DNA from: Mobula hypostoma
Lineage: Eukaryota
DNA length: 64,000 nt
Assembly: GCF_963921235.1 (NCBI RefSeq)
Contig: NC_086108.1
Span: forward strand, 41,852,001 to 41,916,000
Direction of reading: 5' to 3'
The translations under genes and the position numbers were made by a program. This document shows positions 1 to 55,810 of the stretch, piece by piece. Below the pieces are notes generated by a model, which was not told the origin of the DNA, made no database searches, and worked only from the letters and a program-made list of their open reading frames with translations. How positions within the stretch are numbered: position 1 is the stretch's first letter; each line of letters starts with the position of its first letter.

Positions 1-1780
1 TGTCCCCTGCGCTGTACCTCCTGCTTTTAGTTGCCACAGGTTTACAGTCGGGGTCAGGTTGGCGAACAGCAGTGGGGGAGGGATCTTGAGGGGGGAGAGG
101 CCGCAAGTGGGGTTCGTTGTGCGGCTGTTGGCATGGTGTTGGGTGGGATGTGCGGGTTGGTGTGTGTGGGTGGTCAGTAGCGGGGTATGTGACGTATTCC
201 TACAAAACTGAGGATTTACAACAGTGATTGGTGGGAGGGGCCCGTCATACTTCATTGTCACGCTTTTCAGGTGGCTCTGGAAGTCGAGCCCCAATAGCAC
301 AGGGACACACAGTTGAGGCATGACCAGTAACATAAAGTCTCGATATCCTGTGCCCTGCACCACTAGTGTTGCTACACAACCCCCCCCCCACCCCCGATGT
401 CTGTTGTATGCGACCCGGAAGCCATGGCGACCCTCTAACTTACCAGCCATATCGCGAGTCCGCAATGCTGCACTGTGTCCGGGTGGAAAAAACTCTCTGT
501 GCTGCCCCTGTCAAACAGGCAGCTTGTCCTGTGCCCCTCCACCAGGATGTCCATCATTGACCTTGCAAGCTGGGGGGAGCGCTTTGGTCGAGGGTCATGG
601 AGGCCAGAGTTGAGTCACTGTCTTGGTCTGGCACGGCACGGTGCCCCGTGAGCACCCGTGGGTCATAGGCGGTGGGAGGTGGCGCCAACCAAGATGGCCG
701 CCCCCATGTCTCACACGTGGTGGCGGCATGCAGGCAAGATGGCGACCCCCATGCCTCGCATGCAGCGCTGCTCGACCCCGCTCGCGGTTTGGACTTACAA
801 GCCTTGACGAAGTGGTCCTTCTTTCCGCAGCTGCAGCAGGTAGCTTCTTGGGCCAGGCAGCATTTACAGGGGTGCTTCTCGAGTCCGCAGAGGTAGCACT
901 TCACAGACTCGCGACTGGCAGCAGCTGTGGTCGATTCGCCGGTGGGTTGCGGGGTCTGCGGTGTCCACGAGGCCATCGGGGTTCGCGTGCCTGGAGAGCC
1001 TCAAGAGTTCTGCAGAGCGGCCTCCAGCATGTTGGCCAGCTCAATCACTGAACATAAGGTAAGATCTGCTTGGTCCTTCAGCCGCTGGCGCACGTACACT
1101 GATCTGGTCCCCATGACGAAGGCATCTCTTACTAGGAGCTCCACATGCTGTTCAGCCGTCAGCCCCTGGCAATCGTAGGTCCGCACGAGTGTCTGTAGGG
1201 CCTGGACAAACTCAGCCCTCGACTCCCTGGGCCGCTGCTGCCGTGTCGCTAAGCGATGCTGCACGTAGACGGTGTTTACCGGCCGCAGGTACTGTCTTTT
1301 GAGGGCGCTCATCGCACCGTCGTAGCTCGGCTGGTCTCTGATCATCAAGTAGACCCGAGGACTGACCCTGGAGAGGAGAACTCTGAGCTTCGCGGTGGGC
1401 TCGGTCACTTCAATCTCCTCTAGGTATGATTCGAAGCAGGCCAGCCAGAGTTCAAAAGCATTTCCAACTTCAGGTGTTTGCGGGTCGAGGTCTAACTTGT
1501 CGGGTCTCAGATCACGTTCCATGCTTTAAAATTACTGCTAATAAAATTGATGCACCATCAGTAACTCCAAAAGATTGGAAGTAGAGTAAATACTGAAAGG
1601 CTTTTATTAGCAGTAAAATGTGACCTCCACCATGCTGAGTATCTGCCCTGGACTGAGAAGAGGAGCAATGGCACAATCGCCTTTATTCAGGGGTCTGTGG
1701 GAAGAGCCACAGGAGCAGTCAGCAGAGGGGCTCGTCCAGACAGGTAACCCAGTTACAACATATATATATGGTTTACCACA
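1..1780 (-). mobile_element. Gypsy/Ty3 LTR retrotransposon, 5' part (5' LTR, gag with CCHC knuckle, aspartic protease, start of pol); frameshifted; continues off the left edge
   Basis: LTR 1548-1780 (TG...CA). Gag ORF 1001-1522 (RPDKLDLDP...LATRQQRPRES...RDAFV). Zinc knuckle CYLCGLEKHPCKCCLAQEATCCSCGKKDHFVKAC in 554-976. Protease-like CLFDRGSTESF near 485-520 and VLLGLDFQSHL near 270-300. Frameshifts near 1003, 975 and the G-run at 380-395. Confidence 0.93.
1548..1780 (-). repeat. 5' LTR of Gypsy element (233 bp)
   Basis: Element strand reads TGTGGTAAACC...GGTGCATCA and contains AATAAA (plus-strand tttatt near 1603-1608). Homologous to the solo LTR at 7508-7738. Confidence 0.9.
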
Positions 1781-2997: not shown

Positions 2998-4890
2998 AAG
3001 CTGTACGAACCTGTTGGAATTCTTTGACGAGATTACAAGTAGGATAGATACAGGGGATGTAGTGGATGTTGCATATTTGAACTTTCAGAAGGCCCTTGAC
3101 AAGGCGCCACACATGAGGCTGCTTACCTAGTTAAGAGCCCATGGTATGACAGGAAAATTACTAACATGGTTAGAGCATTGGCTGATTGGTAGGAGGCAGC
3201 AAGTGGCAATAAAAGGATCCTTTTCTGATTGGCTGCCAGTGACGAGTAGTGTTCTGCAGGAGTCAGTGTTGGGACCACTTCTTTTTATGCTGGATATAAA
3301 TGATTTAGATGATGAAATAGATGGCTTTGTTGCCAAGTTTGCAGATGATATGAAGATTGGTGGAGGGGCAGGTAGTGTTGAGGAACCAGGTAGGATGCGG
3401 AAGGACTTAGATAGAATGGGCAAGAAAGTGGCAAATAGTCATAGTCATACTTCATTGATCCCGGGGGAAATTGGTTTTTGTTACAGTTGCACCATAAATA
3501 ATAAATAGTAATAGAACCATAAATAGTTACATAGTAATATGTAAAGTATGCCAGTAAATTATGAATTAAGTCCAGGACCAGCCTATTGGCTCAGGGTGTC
3601 TGACCCTCCAAGGGAGGAGTTGTAAAGTTTGATAGCCACGGGCAGGAATGACCTCCTATGACGCTCTGTGTTGCATCTCGGTGGAATGAGTCTCTGGCTG
3701 AATGTACTCCTGTGTCCACCCAGTACATTATGTAGTGGATGGGAGACATTGACCAAGATGGCATGCAACTTAGACAGCATCCTCTTTTCAGACACCACCG
3801 TGAGAGAGTCCAGTTCCATCCCCACAACATCACTGGCCTTACGAATGAGTTTGTTGATTCTGTTGGTGTCTGTTACCCTCAGCCTGCTGCCCCAGCACAC
3901 AACAGCAAACATGATAGCACTGGCCACCACAGACTCGTAGAACATCCTCAGCATCATCCGGCAGATGTTAAAGGACCTCAGTCTCCTCAGGAAATAGAGA
4001 CGGCTCTGACCCTTCTTGTAGACAGCCTCAGTATTCTTTGACCTGTCCAGTTTATTGTCAATTCGTATCCCCAGGTACTTGTAATACAATGTTGGAAAAT
4101 GCATGGTCGTGTACTTTGGTAGTAGCAATAAATGAGTGGACTATTTTCTAAACGGGGAGGAAATCCAAAAATCTGAGATGCAGAGGGACTTGGGGGTCCT
4201 TGTGCAGAACACCCTAAAGGTTAACTTGCAGGTTGAGTCAGTGGTGAGGAAGGTAAATGCCATGTTGGCATTCATTTCAAGAAGTCTAGAACACAAGAGC
4301 AAGGATGTGATGCTGAGGCTTTAGAAGGCACAGGTGAGGCCTCACCTTGAGTATTTGGGCCCTTCATCTTAGAAAAGATGTGCTGGCATTGGAGAGGGTC
4401 CAGAGGAGGTTCACAAGGATGTTTCCAGGAATGAAAGGGTTATCATACAACCATATCTGATGGCTCTGGGGCTGTACTCACTGGAATTCAGAAGGATGAG
4501 GGGGGATCTCATTGAAACCTGTCAAACATTGAAAGGCCCAGACACAGTAGATATGAAAAAGATGTTTCCCATGGTGGGAGTGTCTAGGACAAGAGGGCAC
4601 AGCCCTTAGGATAGAGGGGCGCCCTTTCAGAACAGAGATACAGAGAAATTTCTTTAGCCAAAGGGTGGTGAATTTGTGGAATTTGTTGCCACATGCAGCT
4701 GTGGAGGCCAGGTCGTTGGGTGTATTTAAGGCAGAGATTGATAGGTTCTTGATTGGACATGGAATCAAAGGTTATGGGGAGAAGGCAGGGAACTGGGGTT
4801 GAGGGGGAGGAAAAAAAAGGATCAGCCACGATTGAATGGCGGAGCAGACTTGATGGGCTAAATGGCCTAATTCTGTTCCTACGTCTTATG
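2998..4890 (+). mobile_element. CR1 LINE 3' fragment (RT and 3' UTR), interrupted by Rex1 at 3437-4085
   Basis: SCTNLLEFFDEIT, VLGPLLF, KFADDMKIGG, RDLGVLV; ends in the CR1 3' UTR (aatggcctaattctgttcct). Confidence 0.93.
3437..4085 (-). mobile_element. Rex1/Babar-type LINE, 5'-truncated copy
   Basis: YKYLGIRIDNKL...KKGQSRLYFLRRLRSF...RRSFLPVAIKLYN; (tatgac)n tail; near-identical coding sequence to the 3' end of the copy at 52635-55525. Confidence 0.93.
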
Positions 4891-7507: not shown

Positions 7508-7738
7508 TGATGCACTATCAATTGCTCCAAAAGACTGGAAGTAGATTAAATACTGAAAGGCTTTTATTAACTGTAAATGGACCAACGTCCATGCTGAGTA
7601 TCTGTCCCGGACTGAGGGAGGAGCAGTGGCACAATTGCCTTTATTCAGGGGTCTGTGGGAGGAGCCACAGGAGCAGTCAGCAGAGGGGCGTGTCCAGACA
7701 GGTAACCCAGTTACAACATATATATATGACTTACCACA
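7508..7738 (-). mobile_element. solo LTR of the same Gypsy family as 1548-1780
   Basis: Aligns end to end with 1548-1780; TG...CA termini; 5-bp TSD gacgt / gacat (one CpG-type change). Confidence 0.9.
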
Positions 7739-20829: not shown

Positions 20830-23800
20830 TTTACAAGTCTTTGACTCCAGGGCAGGTGGAAATGGACGTAAACATCTTGACATAATGCATGGAGAATTGT
20901 CCGTATCTTAACAAACACTCTGTTTCTTCAAGCTGACAAATGCTCGACCTTATTGCTACCCTTCTGGTCCAAGTATTGATAATTGTTATATTATATCATC
21001 ATCTGAGCAAGGGACAACAGAGATGTCCATATCACCCATACCTTAACAGGTATTGATGATTATTTTCGGATGATTGTCTAATCCACTGCTATCTCCAGCA
21101 ACCTGGGCCAAAACACCAGTATGAACAGAAGCTTTGATAGAAGATCAATGTCAAAACTCTCAAGGGCCCATTAGACTCTTATCAGACAGTGTCTCACAGA
21201 CAACCTGCCAACTTCTAGGCTACAGGAGCAGACATTGGCTCCTGTGCCAAGAAGAACTAAGACTGGCTTTTTGAAAATCACCAGGCACCGAGCTAATTAA
21301 CCACATTTGTAAGGTGTTCAGGAACTGGAAGCTTGACTTCCTCAAGGAAAAATAAATAGATGACATGTCTAACTCTTGGCTGTTAAATCACCTGTGCCTC
21401 CAACACCGCACTTCAATAAGAGCCAGGAATGGGATGAATTTCATCAAGGATAGAGAGGCAATCAGTGTCTGCTGGATGGAACACTTCCTGGACCCTTTCA
21501 ATGACAACTCTGTCCTTAATATGAGCACGCTTGACTGCATGCTACAGCACCGTATACAGACCAGCCTTGTTCTGATACCTAACTGACGGGAAAATAAGGT
21601 GGATAAATCCCACTTAAAAAATAATAAGGCCTCAGGAACACTCAGCAAATTCCTACAACTCTCCATCACGAAGCTTTGACTTTACATCCACATCTTCATC
21701 TGCTACATTTGGAGCCTAACACATAACAAAACTATAGAAGGGAGTCCTTGCAGACTGACACAAAACAAATCATCACCAATGTATCCTGAACATCTCCTCC
21801 CCCTGTGGCTGAAGAGCCGCTCCCCAAATTAAAGTATGTATTCTTTCTATCTGGACGTGATTTCATTGTGTATCCACTTCAAAAGAAATGCAAGGAGCAG
21901 CACCAGCCATTTCACACTGCCATTATCAATCTCACCAAAGTCTCTGACTTCATCTATTGGAAGAGACCATCCTTAAATTTAGCTGCATGTAAAAAATTGG
22001 CTTGTTCTTGCATTTGTCCCACAATAACACGCACATCATGCTATTAACCAATGTGCTTATGAATAAAGTATTTGCAGTGAATACTGTTGTCAAGCAAGGC
22101 TGCATCATTGCCCGAGAGCTTTTCTCTATCTTTCTTGCTGCAATGTTGCACCTCACCTCCAAGAAACGTAGTGTTGGAATGTAATTACAGTGCCTATAAA
22201 AAGTATTCAGTGCCCCCACCCTTAGAAGTTGTCATGTTTAATTGTTTTACAACATTGAATCACAGTGATTTGATGTTTTTGACACTGATCAACAGAAGAC
22301 ACTTGTGTCAAGGTGAAAACAGATCTCCACAAAGTGATCTAAATTAATTACAAATATAAAACACAAAATAATTGATTACGTTGAGTATTCACCCCCTTTA
22401 ATACGACACATCAAACCATCACTGATGCAGCTGATAGGTTTGACAAGTCACATAATTAGCTAAATGGAGATCACCTGTGCGCAGTCAAGGTGTTTCAATT
22501 GATTGTAGTAAAAGTACACTTGTATCTGGAAGGTCCAACTGTGGTGAGTCAGTATCCTGGCAAAGACTACACTATGAAGACAAAAGAATACTTCAAGCAA
22601 CTCCACGAAAATGTTATGGAAAAGCATAATTCAGGAGATGGATACAAGAAAATTTCCAAGTCACTGACTATCCCTTGGAGTACAGTTAAGTCAACCATCA
22701 ATAAATAGAAAGAATGTGGCACAGCTGTAAATCTGTCTATAAGTAGACTGTCCTCAAAAACTGAGTGATCGTGCAAGAAGAAGTCTAGCAAGGGAGGCCA
22801 CCAAGTGACCTAAGACAGCTCTGGAGGAGTTACAAGCTTCAGTGGCAGAGATGGGAGAGACTGTGCATACAACAACTGTTGCCTGGGTGCTTCCCCAGTC
22901 GCAGTTTTATGGGAGAGTGGCAAAGAGAAAGTGACTGTTGAAAAAAACTCACATGAAATCTTGGCTAAAGTTTGCCAGAAGGCATGTGGGAAGACTCTGA
23001 AGTCAGTTGGAAGAAGGTTCTATGGTCTGATGAAACCAAAATTGAGCTCTTTAGCCATCCAACTAAACACTATGGTTTGGCCATATCATCAAAAACACAG
23101 CATCCCCACCGTGAAGCATGGTGGTGGCTGCATCATGCTGTGGGCATGCTTCACTGCAGCAGACCCTGGAAGGATTGAGAAGGCAGAGAGTAAAACAAAT
23201 GCAGCAAAATGCAGGGAAATCCTGGAGGATAACCAGGTGCAGTCTGCAAGAGAACTGCGACTTAGAAGATTTGTTTTCCAGCAAGACAATGACCCCAAGC
23301 AGAAAGCCAAAGCTACACAGGAATGGCTTGAAAACAACAAAGTTAATGTCCTGGAGTGGCCAAGTCAGAGTCTAGACCTCAATCCAATTGAGAATTTATG
23401 GCTGAACTTGAAAAGGGCTGTTCACTCACAATCCCCATGCAATCTGATGAGTTTGAGCAGTTTTGTAAAGAAGAATGGGGAAATATTGCAGTGTCCAGAT
23501 GTGCAAAACTGATAGAGACCTACCCACACAGACTCAGGGGTATATTGCTGCCAAAAGGTACATTTACTAAATACCAACTTAAAGCCGGTGGATACTTATG
23601 CAATCAATTATTTTGTGTCTTATATGTGTAATTAACTTAGTATGCCCACAGAAAAAGAATCTCAGGTTTGTCTGTGGTGACATGTATGTACTCCGATGAT
23701 AAATTTTAGTTTGAACTTTTTTGAAATTTTACCACAAATAAATTAACAAGTAGTAAGGAGCATTTATGACACTGGATATAAAGTTAACAGTAAGATGCTA

Positions 23801-29258: not shown

Positions 29259-29702
29259 AGTTTCAAAGTATATTTATTATCAAAGTATGTATATAGTATA
29301 GAACCGATATTCGTTTTCCCCTCATACAGCCACGAAACAAAGAAAAACCACGGAACCCATTCAAAGAAATACATCAAACACGAAACCTTTACATGCAAAA
29401 AAAATCAAACTAATGGCAACAAAAAAATGAGCAAAAAACACAGAATATAAAACACAAAATTGAAAGAGTCCAGGCACATTCAGGTCAGCACAGTGTTCAT
29501 TATCTGCAGGCCACCTCAAATCAAAATTGCTCAAAATAGCATCATAAAAGGAGCGACCAATAACCAGAAATGCATCATAACATGAACTATAGAGTCAAAC
29601 CACGTCTATCAACCTTGCTCCAGTACCACCCTCCAGCAGCACCTAGTGAGAGGGAGAGAGAGATCATTCAAATGTAGGGACTTTCCTTCGGGATCAGTAA
29701 GC

Positions 29703-31472
29703 AAGAAGGGGAGAGGGGGAGGGGAGAGAGGGGGGGAGAAGGGGAGGAGAGAGAGGGGGTAGAGGAGAAGGGGAGGAGGAGGAGAGGGAGTGAGAGGGGA
29801 ATGGGGGAGGGAGAGAGGGGAATGGGGGAGGGAGAGAGGGGGATGGGGGAAGGAGAGAGAGGGATGGGGAGGGGAGAGGGGGGATGGGGAGGGGAGAGGG
29901 GGGATGGGGAGGGGCGAGAGGGGGGATGGGGGTAGAGAGGGGGATGGGGAGGGGAGAGGGGGATGGGGAGGGGAGAGGGGGAGGGAGGGGGAGAGGGATG
30001 GGGAGAGGGGGATGGGGAGGGAGAGAGAGGGGATGCGGAGGGAGGGGAATGGGGAGGGAGAGGGAGAAGGATAGAGAGGGAGGGGGATGGAGAAGGAGGG
30101 GGATGGAGAAGGAGGGGGATGGAGAAGGAGAGAGGGGGGATGGGGAGGGAGGGGATGGGGAGGAAGAGAGAGAGGGGGATGGGGAGGAAGAGAGAGAGGG
30201 GGATGGGGAGGGAGAGAGAGAGGGATGGGGAGGGAGAGAGAGGGATGGAGAGGGAGGGGGATGGGGAGGGAGAGGGAGGGGGATGGGGAGGGAGAGGGAG
30301 GGAGAGAGTGGGATGGAGAGGGAGGGGGATAGGGAGGGGGATAGGGAGGGGGATGGGGAGGGAGGAGGTTGGGGAGCGAGAGAGGGGGGATGGGGAGGGG
30401 TAGAGAGGGGGATGGAGAGGGAGGGGGGTGGGGAGGGAGGAGGTTGGGGAGCGAGAGGGGGAATGGGGAGGGGAGGGAGGGGGAGAGGGATGGGGAGAGG
30501 GGGATGGGGAGGGAGAGAGGGGGATGGGGAGGGAGAGAGAGAGACGGGGGATGGGGAGGGAGAGAGAGGGGGGATGCGGAGGGAGGGGAATGGGGAGGGA
30601 GAGGGAGAAGGATAGAGAGGGAGGGGGATGGAGAAGGAGGGGATGGGGAGGGAGAGAGAGGGGAGGGAGAGGGAGAGACGGGGGATGGGAGGGGGGATGG
30701 GGAGGGAAGAGAGGGGGGATGGGGAGGGGGAGAGAGGGGGATGGGGAGGGGAAGAGAGGGGGAGGGAGGGGGAGGGGGAGAGAGGGGGATGGGGAGGGGT
30801 AGAGAGGGGGTGGGGAGGGGAGAGGGGAGGGAGGGGGAGAGGGATGGGGAGAGGGGAATGGGGAGGGAGAGAGAGGGGAGGGAGAGGGAGAGACGGGGGA
30901 TAGGGAGAGACGGGGATGGGGAGGGAGAGGAATGGGGATGGAGAGGGAGAAGGATAGAGAGGCAGGGGGATGGAGAAGGAGGGGGATGGGGAGGGAGAGA
31001 GGGGGGATGGGGAGGGAGAGAGAGGGGGATGGAGAGGGAGGGGATGGAGAGGGAGGGGATGGGGAGGGAGAGAGGGAGGGAGAGAGGGGGATGGGGAGGA
31101 AGAGAGAAGGATGGAGAGGGAGGGGGATGGGGATGGAGAGGGAGAGAGTGGGATGGAGAGGGGGGATGGGGAGGGAGGGGGGATGGGGAGGGAGGAGGTT
31201 GGGGAGCGAGAGAGACGGGGATGGGGAGGGAGAGAGAGGGGGGATGGGGAGGGAGAGAGTGGGATGGAGAGGGAGGGGGATGGGGAGGGAGAGAGAGAGG
31301 GGATGGGGAGGGAGAGAGTGGGAGATGAGGAGAGAGAGAGGGAGATGGGGAGGAGGAGGGGAGAGGGGGTGGAGATCGGGAGGGGGATGGGAGAGGGGGG
31401 AGAGAGGGGGGGAGGGGAGGGAGTGAGGGGGAGGGGAGAGAAGGGAGAAAGGGGGGAGGGGGAGAGAGAGAG
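29703..31472 (+). repeat. 1.77-kb polypurine G-rich low-complexity/minisatellite tract (ggggatggggagggagagag-like units)
   Basis: Almost only G and A with sparse T and C; higher-order repeated blocks; produces the spurious Pro/Ser/Leu and Gly/Glu/Arg ORFs. Confidence 0.97.
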
Positions 31473-31710
31473 GCCATTTGCCTTCTTCACCACCATAAAT
31501 ATCAGTGCTTCTACCTTTGGGAATCTTTGGATTTTGTTCTTCAGCACTTACAGTAGCTTTATTAAACCATATAAACTGTATCACCTCAGAAATTGAATAA
31601 ATCACAAATTGTATCACTTCAGAATTAATTTCCACCCACCATCGCCCTGTCCAATTATGCAGCTGATCTGTAGCCAAAGACTACTTTCCTCACGATCAAC
31701 AACATGAAAA

Positions 31711-54700: not shown

Positions 54701-55810
54701 GCAGTGTACAGGGCTACGGTAGGAAACTTTGTCACATGGTGTGAGCAGAATAATCTGCTGCTTAATGTGAAAAAGACTAAGGAGCTGGTGGTGGACCTGA
54801 GGAGGACGAAGGCACCGTTGACTCCTGTTTCCATCCAGGGGGTCAGTGTGGACATGGTGGAGGATTACAAATACCTGGGGATACGAATTGACAATAAACT
54901 GAACTGGTCAAAGAACACTGAGGCTGTCTACAAGAAGGGTCAGAGCCGTCTCTATTTCCTGAGGAGACTGAGGTCCTTTAACATCTTTCGGACGACGCTG
55001 AGGATGTTTTACAAGTCTGTGGTGGCCAGTGCTATCATGTTTGCTGTTGTGTGCTGGGGCAGCAGGCTGAAGGTAGCAGACACCAACAGAATCAACAAAC
55101 TCATTCGTAAGGCCAGTGATGTTGTGGGGATGGAACTGGACTCTCTCACGGTGGTGTCTGAAAAGAGGATGCTGTCCAAGTTGCAGGCCATCTTGGACAA
55201 TGTCTCCCATCCACTACATAATGTACTGGGTGGGCACAGAAGTACATTCAGCCAGAGACTCATTCCACCGAGATGCAACACTGAGCGTCATAGGAAGTCA
55301 TTCCTGTCTGTGGCCATCAAACTTTACAACTCCTCCCTTGGAGGGTCAGATGCCCTGAGCCAATAGGCTGGTCCTGGACTTATTTCCATCTGGTATAATT
55401 TACATATTATTATTTAATTATTTATGGTTTTATATTGCTATATTTATACTCTATTCTTGGTTGGTGCAACTGTAACGAAACCCAATTTCCCTCGGGATCA
55501 ATAAAGTATGACTATGACTATGACTATCCAGTTACTACATCACCTTCCAGATTATTGATATAGATGACAAACAAAAACAGACACAGCACCAATCCCTGTG
55601 GCGCACCACTAGACACAGACCTCCAGTCAGAGAGGCGACCATTTACTACCACTTTCTCGCTTCTACCGCAAAACCAATGTCTATTCCAATTTACTACTTC
55701 ATCCTGAATACCAATTGACTCAACCTTCTCGACCAAACCCCAATGTGGGACCTTGTCAAAGGCCTTGCTAAGGTCCATGTAGACAACATCCACTGCCTTC
55801 CCTTCATCAC
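51720..55810 (-). mobile_element. CR1 LINE fragment split by the Rex1 insertion (51720-52637 and 55526-55810)
   Basis: DVVYMDLSKAFDKVPH and SGAPQGLVL...YINNL on the right; DLGIQVHNSL and RPNLEYC on the left; the two junctions are contiguous. Confidence 0.88.
52635..55525 (+). mobile_element. near full-length Rex1/Babar LINE (APE endonuclease + RT) with few inactivating mutations
   Basis: IIMGNVRSL, VYIPPSA, ISGDFNH, TLDLMYAN and LDHNLV (APE); KAAGPDG, NDYRPVALTS, QFAYQP, DFSSAFNTI, PQGTVLSPFLFTIYT and FSDDSA (RT). One stop (52746) and about 3 frameshifts; aataaa-(tatgac)3 tail. Confidence 0.96.

Follow-up and report, generated by a model that had tools for sequence, protein, structure and literature searches.

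A candidate self-priming signal complementary to its own LTR in a Gypsy element of Mobula hypostoma and in related animal elements

A Ty3/Gypsy retrotransposon in the genome of the ray Mobula hypostoma carries, one base behind its 5′ LTR, 15 bases that are complementary to a segment of the same LTR, and this relation is kept with different letters in 21 families of related elements. From the sequence comparisons described below we consider it highly probable that these 15 bases are the primer-binding site for an RNA primer that is made from the element's own transcript. The window, by which we mean the whole stretch of DNA analysed here, comprises 64,000 nucleotides (NCBI RefSeq assembly GCF_963921235.1, contig NC_086108.1, positions 41,852,001 to 41,916,000 of the forward strand), and positions without further specification refer to it.

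The element in the window and its complementary segments

The element is located on the minus strand at the beginning of the window, and the following features are relevant for the discussion.

1548..1780, minus strand: 5′ LTR of a Ty3/Gypsy retrotransposon, 233 nt, TG...CA, 89% identity to the solo LTR
1547..1547, minus strand: one-base spacer A between LTR end and primer site (sequence)
1532..1546, minus strand: candidate primer-binding site TTTTATTAGCAGTAA, complementary to the own LTR, no TGG (sequence, pattern scan)
1602..1616, minus strand: partner of the primer site with AATAAA inside, candidate 3′ end of the self-primer (sequence, pattern scan)
1681..1688, minus strand: TATA-like GAATAAAG, which is also a first AATAAA; putative promoter element (sequence; also present in the solo LTR)
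1651..1656, minus strand: initiator-like TCAGTC with a candidate start at 1654; also splice acceptor-like (sequence, motif scans)
1591..1601, minus strand: predicted 5′ strand of a second helix, begins with GCC directly after the partner (RNA folding)
1552..1563, minus strand: predicted 3′ strand of the second helix in U5, overlaps the TGATG/CATCA repeat (RNA folding)
1..1522, minus strand: gag and protease region, broken; leaves the window before RT (ORF and translation reading)
7508..7738, minus strand: solo LTR belonging to the family of the element, flanked by a 5-bp target duplication (sequence alignment, pattern scan)

The limits of the LTR are supported by the solo LTR, which has the same TG...CA ends and is framed by a target duplication (ATGTC/ACGTC, 5 bp with one mismatch); 209 of 234 columns are identical between the two LTRs. 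Alignments with the contigs of relatives end at 1780 and 1547-1548, i.e. at the same limits, and the LTR terminates on the element strand with GGTGCATCA at 1548. The position of the LTR end is confirmed by relatives with two LTRs, since 5-bp target duplications are present in eight of 15 such loci. The A that follows the terminal CA is also found in the displayed junctions of relatives, a constancy that is partly forced by our search rule. As indicated by the initial annotation, the gag ATG is close to the LTR (ATG at 1522, 25 nt past the LTR end). The window copy is probably dead because its gag frame has an in-frame stop after 173 codons and changes frame thereafter.

The initial annotation had described a 15-mer one nucleotide behind the LTR in place of a tRNA-type TGG site, and an exact complement of this 15-mer in the LTR that includes AATAAA. 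Both observations were reproduced: positions 1546-1532 are the reverse complement of 1616-1602 at 15 of 15 positions, and the only occurrences of the 15-mer without mismatch in the 64-kb window are 1532-1546 (-) and 1602-1616 (+). When up to two mismatches were allowed, three places were found (0.19 expected by chance), namely the two arms and a segment of the solo LTR with two mismatches (7562-7576). The A+T-rich composition of the 15-mer could point to a chance match or to a functionless local inverted duplication. However, mononucleotide shuffling of the LTR (20,000 rounds) gave complements to the start of the primer site of at most 10 nt (1/20,000) and never of 15 nt, and the same register is found over a clade with RT identities of 42-94%. 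The shuffles together with the pairing in 21 families refute this explanation, to which we assign practically no probability.

The solo LTR lies 6 kb upstream of the element, and its version of the partner differs at two positions. By its sequence, this altered partner predicts a subfamily whose primer site is changed accordingly. In two contigs of run X9 (among contigs of four runs) the primer site was changed at 1538, and this change would pair with the partner version of the solo LTR; the matching LTR row was not among the rows listed, and the linkage was therefore not counted. Elsewhere, the window contains two inverted 523-nt copies of 95% identity (3563-4085 and 54864-55386) of an element in which an ALKBH8_N-like stretch follows an RT domain, a fragment of a DDE_3 (Tc1-like) transposase at 23030-23512 (+), and a degenerate G/A-rich low-complexity repeat of ~1.9 kb at 29600-31500 in which several frames are open.

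Covariation of primer site and LTR partner in related elements

The gag protein of the window copy shares 61-77% identity with 26 matches named from rays (Mobula, Hypanus and Hemitrygon); RT and IN of this copy are beyond the window, and close ray relatives were used to judge them. Pol of such a ray relative retrieved 2,248 proteins at E<=1e-20. The 120 Pol matches listed showed 58-100% identity and included shark, electric ray, cnidarian and nematode names, and a gag profile search added corals, decapods, a crinoid, a tunicate, a snail and a spider. No relative of the element was found in the viral contigs searched. Seventy-four loci were fetched, 64 from metagenomes (from the best 80 of 522 matches) and ten from genome contigs; 26 of the 74 remained unscored, 25 for want of the gag N-terminus and L060 because of its truncation in gag. 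Junctions were sought in 46 loci plus the window, and in 35 of them CA-A-T[TC]T preceded a gag start by 8-75 nt, a rule that partly fixed primer-site positions 1-3. These 35 junctions fall into 21 families, and for each family a copy with its most frequent primer site was used. RT identity among the rows with enough RT was 42-94% with a median of 59%. Seven loci (L065, L066, L067, L068, L069, L070 and L071) are intact-looking animal-type Gypsy elements in contigs filed under bacterial MAGs; these contigs are likely eukaryotic contamination.

Compensatory covariation between the LTR 15-mer and the 15-mer behind the LTR, a check proposed in the initial annotation, was detected. At primer-site positions 1-13 of the 21 families, 267 of 273 cells are Watson-Crick pairs, none is G-U and six are mismatches, although the families share ancestry in several tree clusters, so that such cell counts overstate independence and the effective number of families is below 21. 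The complementarity is kept with different letters, and each of positions 5-13 is represented by 3-4 pair types. Pairing extends to positions 12 and 13 in 20/21 and 19/21 families, respectively. At positions 14-16 only 36 of 63 cells are Watson-Crick (4 G-U, 23 mismatches), and from position 17 on pairing equals the column-shuffle background. Runs of at least 12 pairs occurred in 18 of 21 tests against the own LTR vs 2 of 420 cross-family tests, and the mean own-LTR run of 13.4 has to be compared with a maximum of 8.9 in 100,000 permutations.

The same coupling is visible on a smaller scale. In the intact 1,238-codon copy L017, one partner base differs in both LTRs from most copies of the family, and the primer-site base matches this change; L010, L020 and L050, with 91-94% identical RT, are set apart by single compensated pairs. 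Among six copies of family F003, position 14 of the primer site varies while the LTR is unchanged, which indicates a coupled zone of ~13 nt. The same layout is present in the permuted contigs L014, L025, L030, L039, L052 and L067, which were chosen for at least 11 pairs and are no unbiased test. In L054 and L029 the site matches the other LTR over 12 and 13 nt, respectively, and L040 (13 bp) and L062 (15 bp, partner ending with GAAGA) fit with other first letters. An unrelated TGG-type Gypsy element around a copy of the clade (L003, 5094-5456 and 12330-12696) served as negative control and gave at most five pairs.

Some loci deviate. L015 is an exception in that the partner is changed in both LTRs and the primer site is not; this is the state expected one cycle before compensation, and we regard the locus as neutral evidence. 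The sites of L001, L011, L051 and L066 are decayed, two mismatches are present in the duplex of L006, a deletion in L002 spans the site and L041 gave no call. L008 and L038 share a G-A mismatch at duplex position 4, and represent either the same copy or a tolerated mismatch.

Priming by a host tRNA half or another small RNA, with the LTR match as a secondary feature, has a precedent in the half-tRNA priming of some Copia lineages (PMC6317226, available text). For the present clade we consider it very improbable: 25 different 13-mers are present at the primer site of 27 families (wider set), each fitting its own LTR, and near-identical elements differ by single-base changes. Moreover, no Rfam family scored above threshold in the region and no tRNA gene is present in the window. 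A canonical TGG primer site in relatives, which the initial annotation had named as counter-evidence, was found in none of the 48 loci with a readable LTR-gag region.

Folding of the leader, poly(A) signal and a possible priming mechanism

In the folded leader of the window copy the duplex of partner and primer site has a probability of 0.82-1.0 per pair. A second helix is predicted directly behind the partner (1601-1591 with 1563-1552, probability 0.72-1.0, one bulged base). The TGATG/CATCA hairpin that the initial annotation had placed at the LTR end exists as an inverted repeat in the DNA, but its pairing probability in the folded RNA is 0.0 and its bases pair with 1601-1591 instead. The three bases after the partner are RCC (GCC or ACC) in 20/21 families and in 25/27 of the wider set. 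They are predicted to be paired in 17 of 21 families, compared with a mean of 3.8 in 20 loop shuffles, and a helix at RCC would, according to these predictions, mark the cut site. The 3′ strand of the second helix is at most 13 nt away from the LTR end in only four of these 17 (window, L019, L006 and L032); mostly, the helix is a local hairpin.

AATAAA or ATTAAA is located inside the partner in 14 of 21 families, and 16 of the 27 partners of the wider set overlap a canonical hexamer. A duplex that hides the poly(A) signal of the 5′ LTR, with priming achieved by other means, would agree with these numbers; such a duplex is confined to the 5′ end of the RNA and is not possible at the 3′ LTR. Several points make this explanation unlikely. 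Seven of the 21 partners lack a canonical hexamer, in L020 and L050 AATAAA is found 26-28 nt downstream of the partner and outside of the duplex, and the partner of L062 ends with GAAGA. Occlusion of the 5′ poly(A) signal, as considered in the initial annotation, is thus not supported as a shared function. A masking helix should also tolerate G-U pairs and need not begin exactly one base past CA, and masking alone would leave the element without a primer. Priming is favoured over masking because the complement starts one base past the LTR end, where minus-strand synthesis must begin, because the duplex is free of G-U whereas the predicted inner helices contain 26 G-U in 201 pairs, because single-base compensations distinguish near-identical elements while position 14 is free, and because RCC and a predicted helix follow directly after the partner. 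Masking may be a side benefit in the 14 families with a hexamer in the partner, and a second role in 3′-end control is conceivable since so many partners of the wider set overlap the hexamer.

Self-priming, which the initial annotation had considered in a variant form, is the reading that we prefer, and it is supported by the G-U-free complementarity in 21 families that ends near position 13. The priming RNA must reach at least position 13 because positions 12 and 13 pair in nearly all families. Where this RNA begins is less uniform. The initial annotation had assumed a start about 40 nt upstream of the partner, which is plausible for the ray LTR: the combination of GAATAAAG at 1688 and TCAGTC at 1656 would place the cap at 1654, 53 nt before the end of the partner. 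This arrangement is not general, since the TATA-like GAATAAAG was not common to the relatives in a motif scan and an initiator-like YYA[GT]T is located exactly at the start of the partner, 13 nt before its end, in 5/21 families (7/27 in the wider set). A start at YYA[GT]T would yield a Tf1-like 11-nt primer. No promoter layout shared by the 21 families was found, with no common TATA spacing and strict initiator matches scattered from -103 to -9.

Two further motifs were noted in this part of the LTR. A GCCGCCAT-like motif is present 29-56 nt upstream of the partner end in six of 21 families, well above shuffles; it reads GCCGCCATNTT or ATGGCG in the LTRs of L008, L065, L032, L003, L018 and L050, and we take it to be YY1-like. 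A polypyrimidine tract followed by CAG, similar to a splice or trans-splice acceptor, occurs 30-50 nt upstream of the partner end in four of 27 families (1.3 expected, p 0.03). Such acceptor-like sites are located at 1651-1670 (-) of the window, at ~3770-3790 of L030, and in L032 and L071; L054 and L067 were assigned by eye.

The primer could alternatively be provided by the 3′ copy of R, if the RNA circularises and its 3′ R anneals to the primer site, with a cut or trimming providing the 3′-OH. Partner and second helix are present in the 3′ copy as well, and its use would explain the pairing of positions 12-13 even if transcription began at the initiator-like A (5/21), which lies 11 nt from the end of the partner. 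We nevertheless judge it improbable: the local, intramolecular fold of the 5′ end is strongly predicted, a cut in the 3′ R would presumably remove most of the homology for strand transfer, and the sole experimentally tested system primes from the 5′ end (accessible part of PMC7175516).

For self-priming from the 5′ end we propose the following sequence of events. The 5′ end of the genomic RNA would fold into a duplex of at least 13 bp between partner and primer site, and the second helix, starting from the next base (RCC), would mark the junction. The RNase H of the element could then, by analogy with Tf1, cut at the AAA/RCC junction or one base away from it, leaving a 3′-OH on the 5′ fragment. 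RT would copy the spacer A, U5 and the rest of R and then transfer to the 3′ R, which must extend past the cut. In retroelements generally, the primer is copied into the plus strand; here, plus-strand synthesis would copy ~13 nt of the primer, and a change in the LTR partner would thus enter the primer site of the next generation. Renewed copying of the site from the primer in every cycle would account for the lack of any G-U in 273 cells, as would an enzyme that requires perfect pairing. The G-U-free zone of 13 nt is then a direct prediction of the copied primer length.

The cut position is uncertain by one base because the linear DNA end may have one or two bases past CA. In most of the two-LTR loci (e.g. 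L004, L020 and L031) the PPT ends with AA right before the TG of the 3′ LTR, and the CA of the 5′ LTR is followed by AT, a contrast that bears on the number of bases trimmed by integrase.

A more detailed version of the model is possible, although we regard it as rather less likely than not to be correct in all its parts: a capped primer of ~45-55 nt is cut internally at a fixed AAA/RCC junction, often at the poly(A) signal; the 13-bp duplex primes and in many families silences the 5′ poly(A) site; and the mechanism is an independent, undescribed one of a large non-chromovirus clade of animal Gypsy elements from cnidarians to rays.

Identity of the clade and comparison with known self-priming elements

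The elements show the features of Ty3/Gypsy retrotransposons (TG...CA LTRs, target duplication, PPT and the order gag-PR-RT-RH-IN), and the best match of the clade's Pol among solved structures is Ty3 Pol (E 1e-56). Domain scans of relatives gave the order PR-RT-RH-IN with integrase after RNase H. In the 14 relatives scanned (of 46 aligned) no Pfam chromo match was obtained at E<=0.01 and no env domain was matched, and a simple pattern search revealed no GP[YF], as expected for a GPY/F module, in the last 260 residues of any of the 46 proteins. Two CCHC knuckles are present in 40/46 and an ILG-type motif in 41/46 proteins; a narrow pattern for a GANG-type protease flap matched 12/46.

Cigr-1 of Ciona intestinalis, also found in molluscs, has a single 3.6-kb ORF and 245-bp LTRs, dimensions that fit the single gag-pol ORF (about 1,170-1,240 codons) and the LTRs (about 150-220 nt) of the relatives. 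The Cigr-1 row of a published marker table (Llorens 2009, supplement file 3) lists two CCHC, ILG, integrase after RNase H, loss of GPY/F, no chromodomain and no env, and our clade equals this row on the tested markers. Mag rows of the same file list a GxV/I motif, and the reference table of a mollusc survey puts Cigr-1 under Mag. The comparison with the Cigr-1/Mag lineage was made by marker table and not by sequence, and our RT tree holds clade members only; the likeness is thus a resemblance in markers rather than a phylogenetic placement. Because of these markers and the lack of a chromodomain the clade seems to fall outside the Tf1/sushi group.

Some animal Gypsy families are reportedly annotated as self-primed in Repbase. 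Our literature search found no description of self-priming for this clade in the sources within its reach, which did not extend to Repbase Reports, to the Dfam and GyDB pages or to subscription journals, so that the feature may well have been noticed before. The caution about novelty in the initial annotation was appropriate, as self-priming is published for Tf1/sushi elements, including those of vertebrates.

Proof of self-priming exists only for Tf1 of fission yeast; the cases inferred otherwise are mostly its chromovirus relatives, together with a few plant lineages. If our interpretation is correct, a widespread animal clade uses a different and simpler RNA structure, and priming without tRNA either has more than one origin or goes back further than assumed. 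This would bear on the question whether hairpin priming preceded tRNA priming (discussed in the available part of PMC3601003), and the elements would presumably escape control by tRNA fragments. Since the whole signal fits into less than 100 nt, the cleavage rule is testable in vitro.

In Tf1 the transcript's first 11 bases anneal and RNase H cuts between bases 11 and 12, and a structure of three duplexes is common to the Tf1/sushi chromoviruses of fungi, vertebrates and non-seed plants (excerpts of PMC7175516, PMC10085805 and PMC4600332 for the former, of PMC10085805, PMC4600332 and PMC5341516 for the latter). Like Tf1 and Tf2 of Schizosaccharomyces pombe, Tj1, Tosmo, Tcry and the Tf1/sushi group, the present clade has no tRNA site and a primer site complementary to an LTR segment, and a helix that follows the primer segment in Tf1 has a predicted counterpart, mostly a local hairpin, in our clade. 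The differences concern the length of the duplex (11 bases in Tf1, at least 13 bp here), the one-nucleotide spacer and the leader of 16-59 nt, and the location of the partner, which often overlaps the poly(A) hexamer and is only 23-69 nt away from the LTR end. The primer of Tf1 is the 5′ end of the transcript, whereas the partner in our clade may not be at the cap. The third duplex of the Tf1 'pretzel', between the LTR and sequence downstream of the primer site, was significant in only one of 21 families (p<0.05; median p 0.27). Finally, the clade differs by the lack of chromodomain and GPY/F and by its two CCHC knuckles.

Outside the Tf1/sushi group, self-priming has been predicted for the plant elements Tcn1 (Gypsy) and TAR, Houba and Osr-1 (Copia) from complementarity of LTR and primer site (available text of PMC6317226). 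Our prediction is of the same kind, and these cases show that self-priming occurs beyond the Tf1/sushi group; they are plant lineages and belong to another superfamily or to a chromovirus branch. Dictyostelid Skipper is a Gypsy element without TGG and with a pyrimidine-rich sequence after the LTR, and the accessible portion of PMC5006619 reports no LTR complement; our clade shares the first two properties and differs by the LTR complement, its defining feature. Further literature for comparison, consulted in excerpts, is found in PMC6238403, PMC2774666, PMC2864245 and PMC8220671. By the sequence tests run, the element in the window fits a mode of action like that of Tf1, except for the missing third duplex and the missing chromovirus markers.
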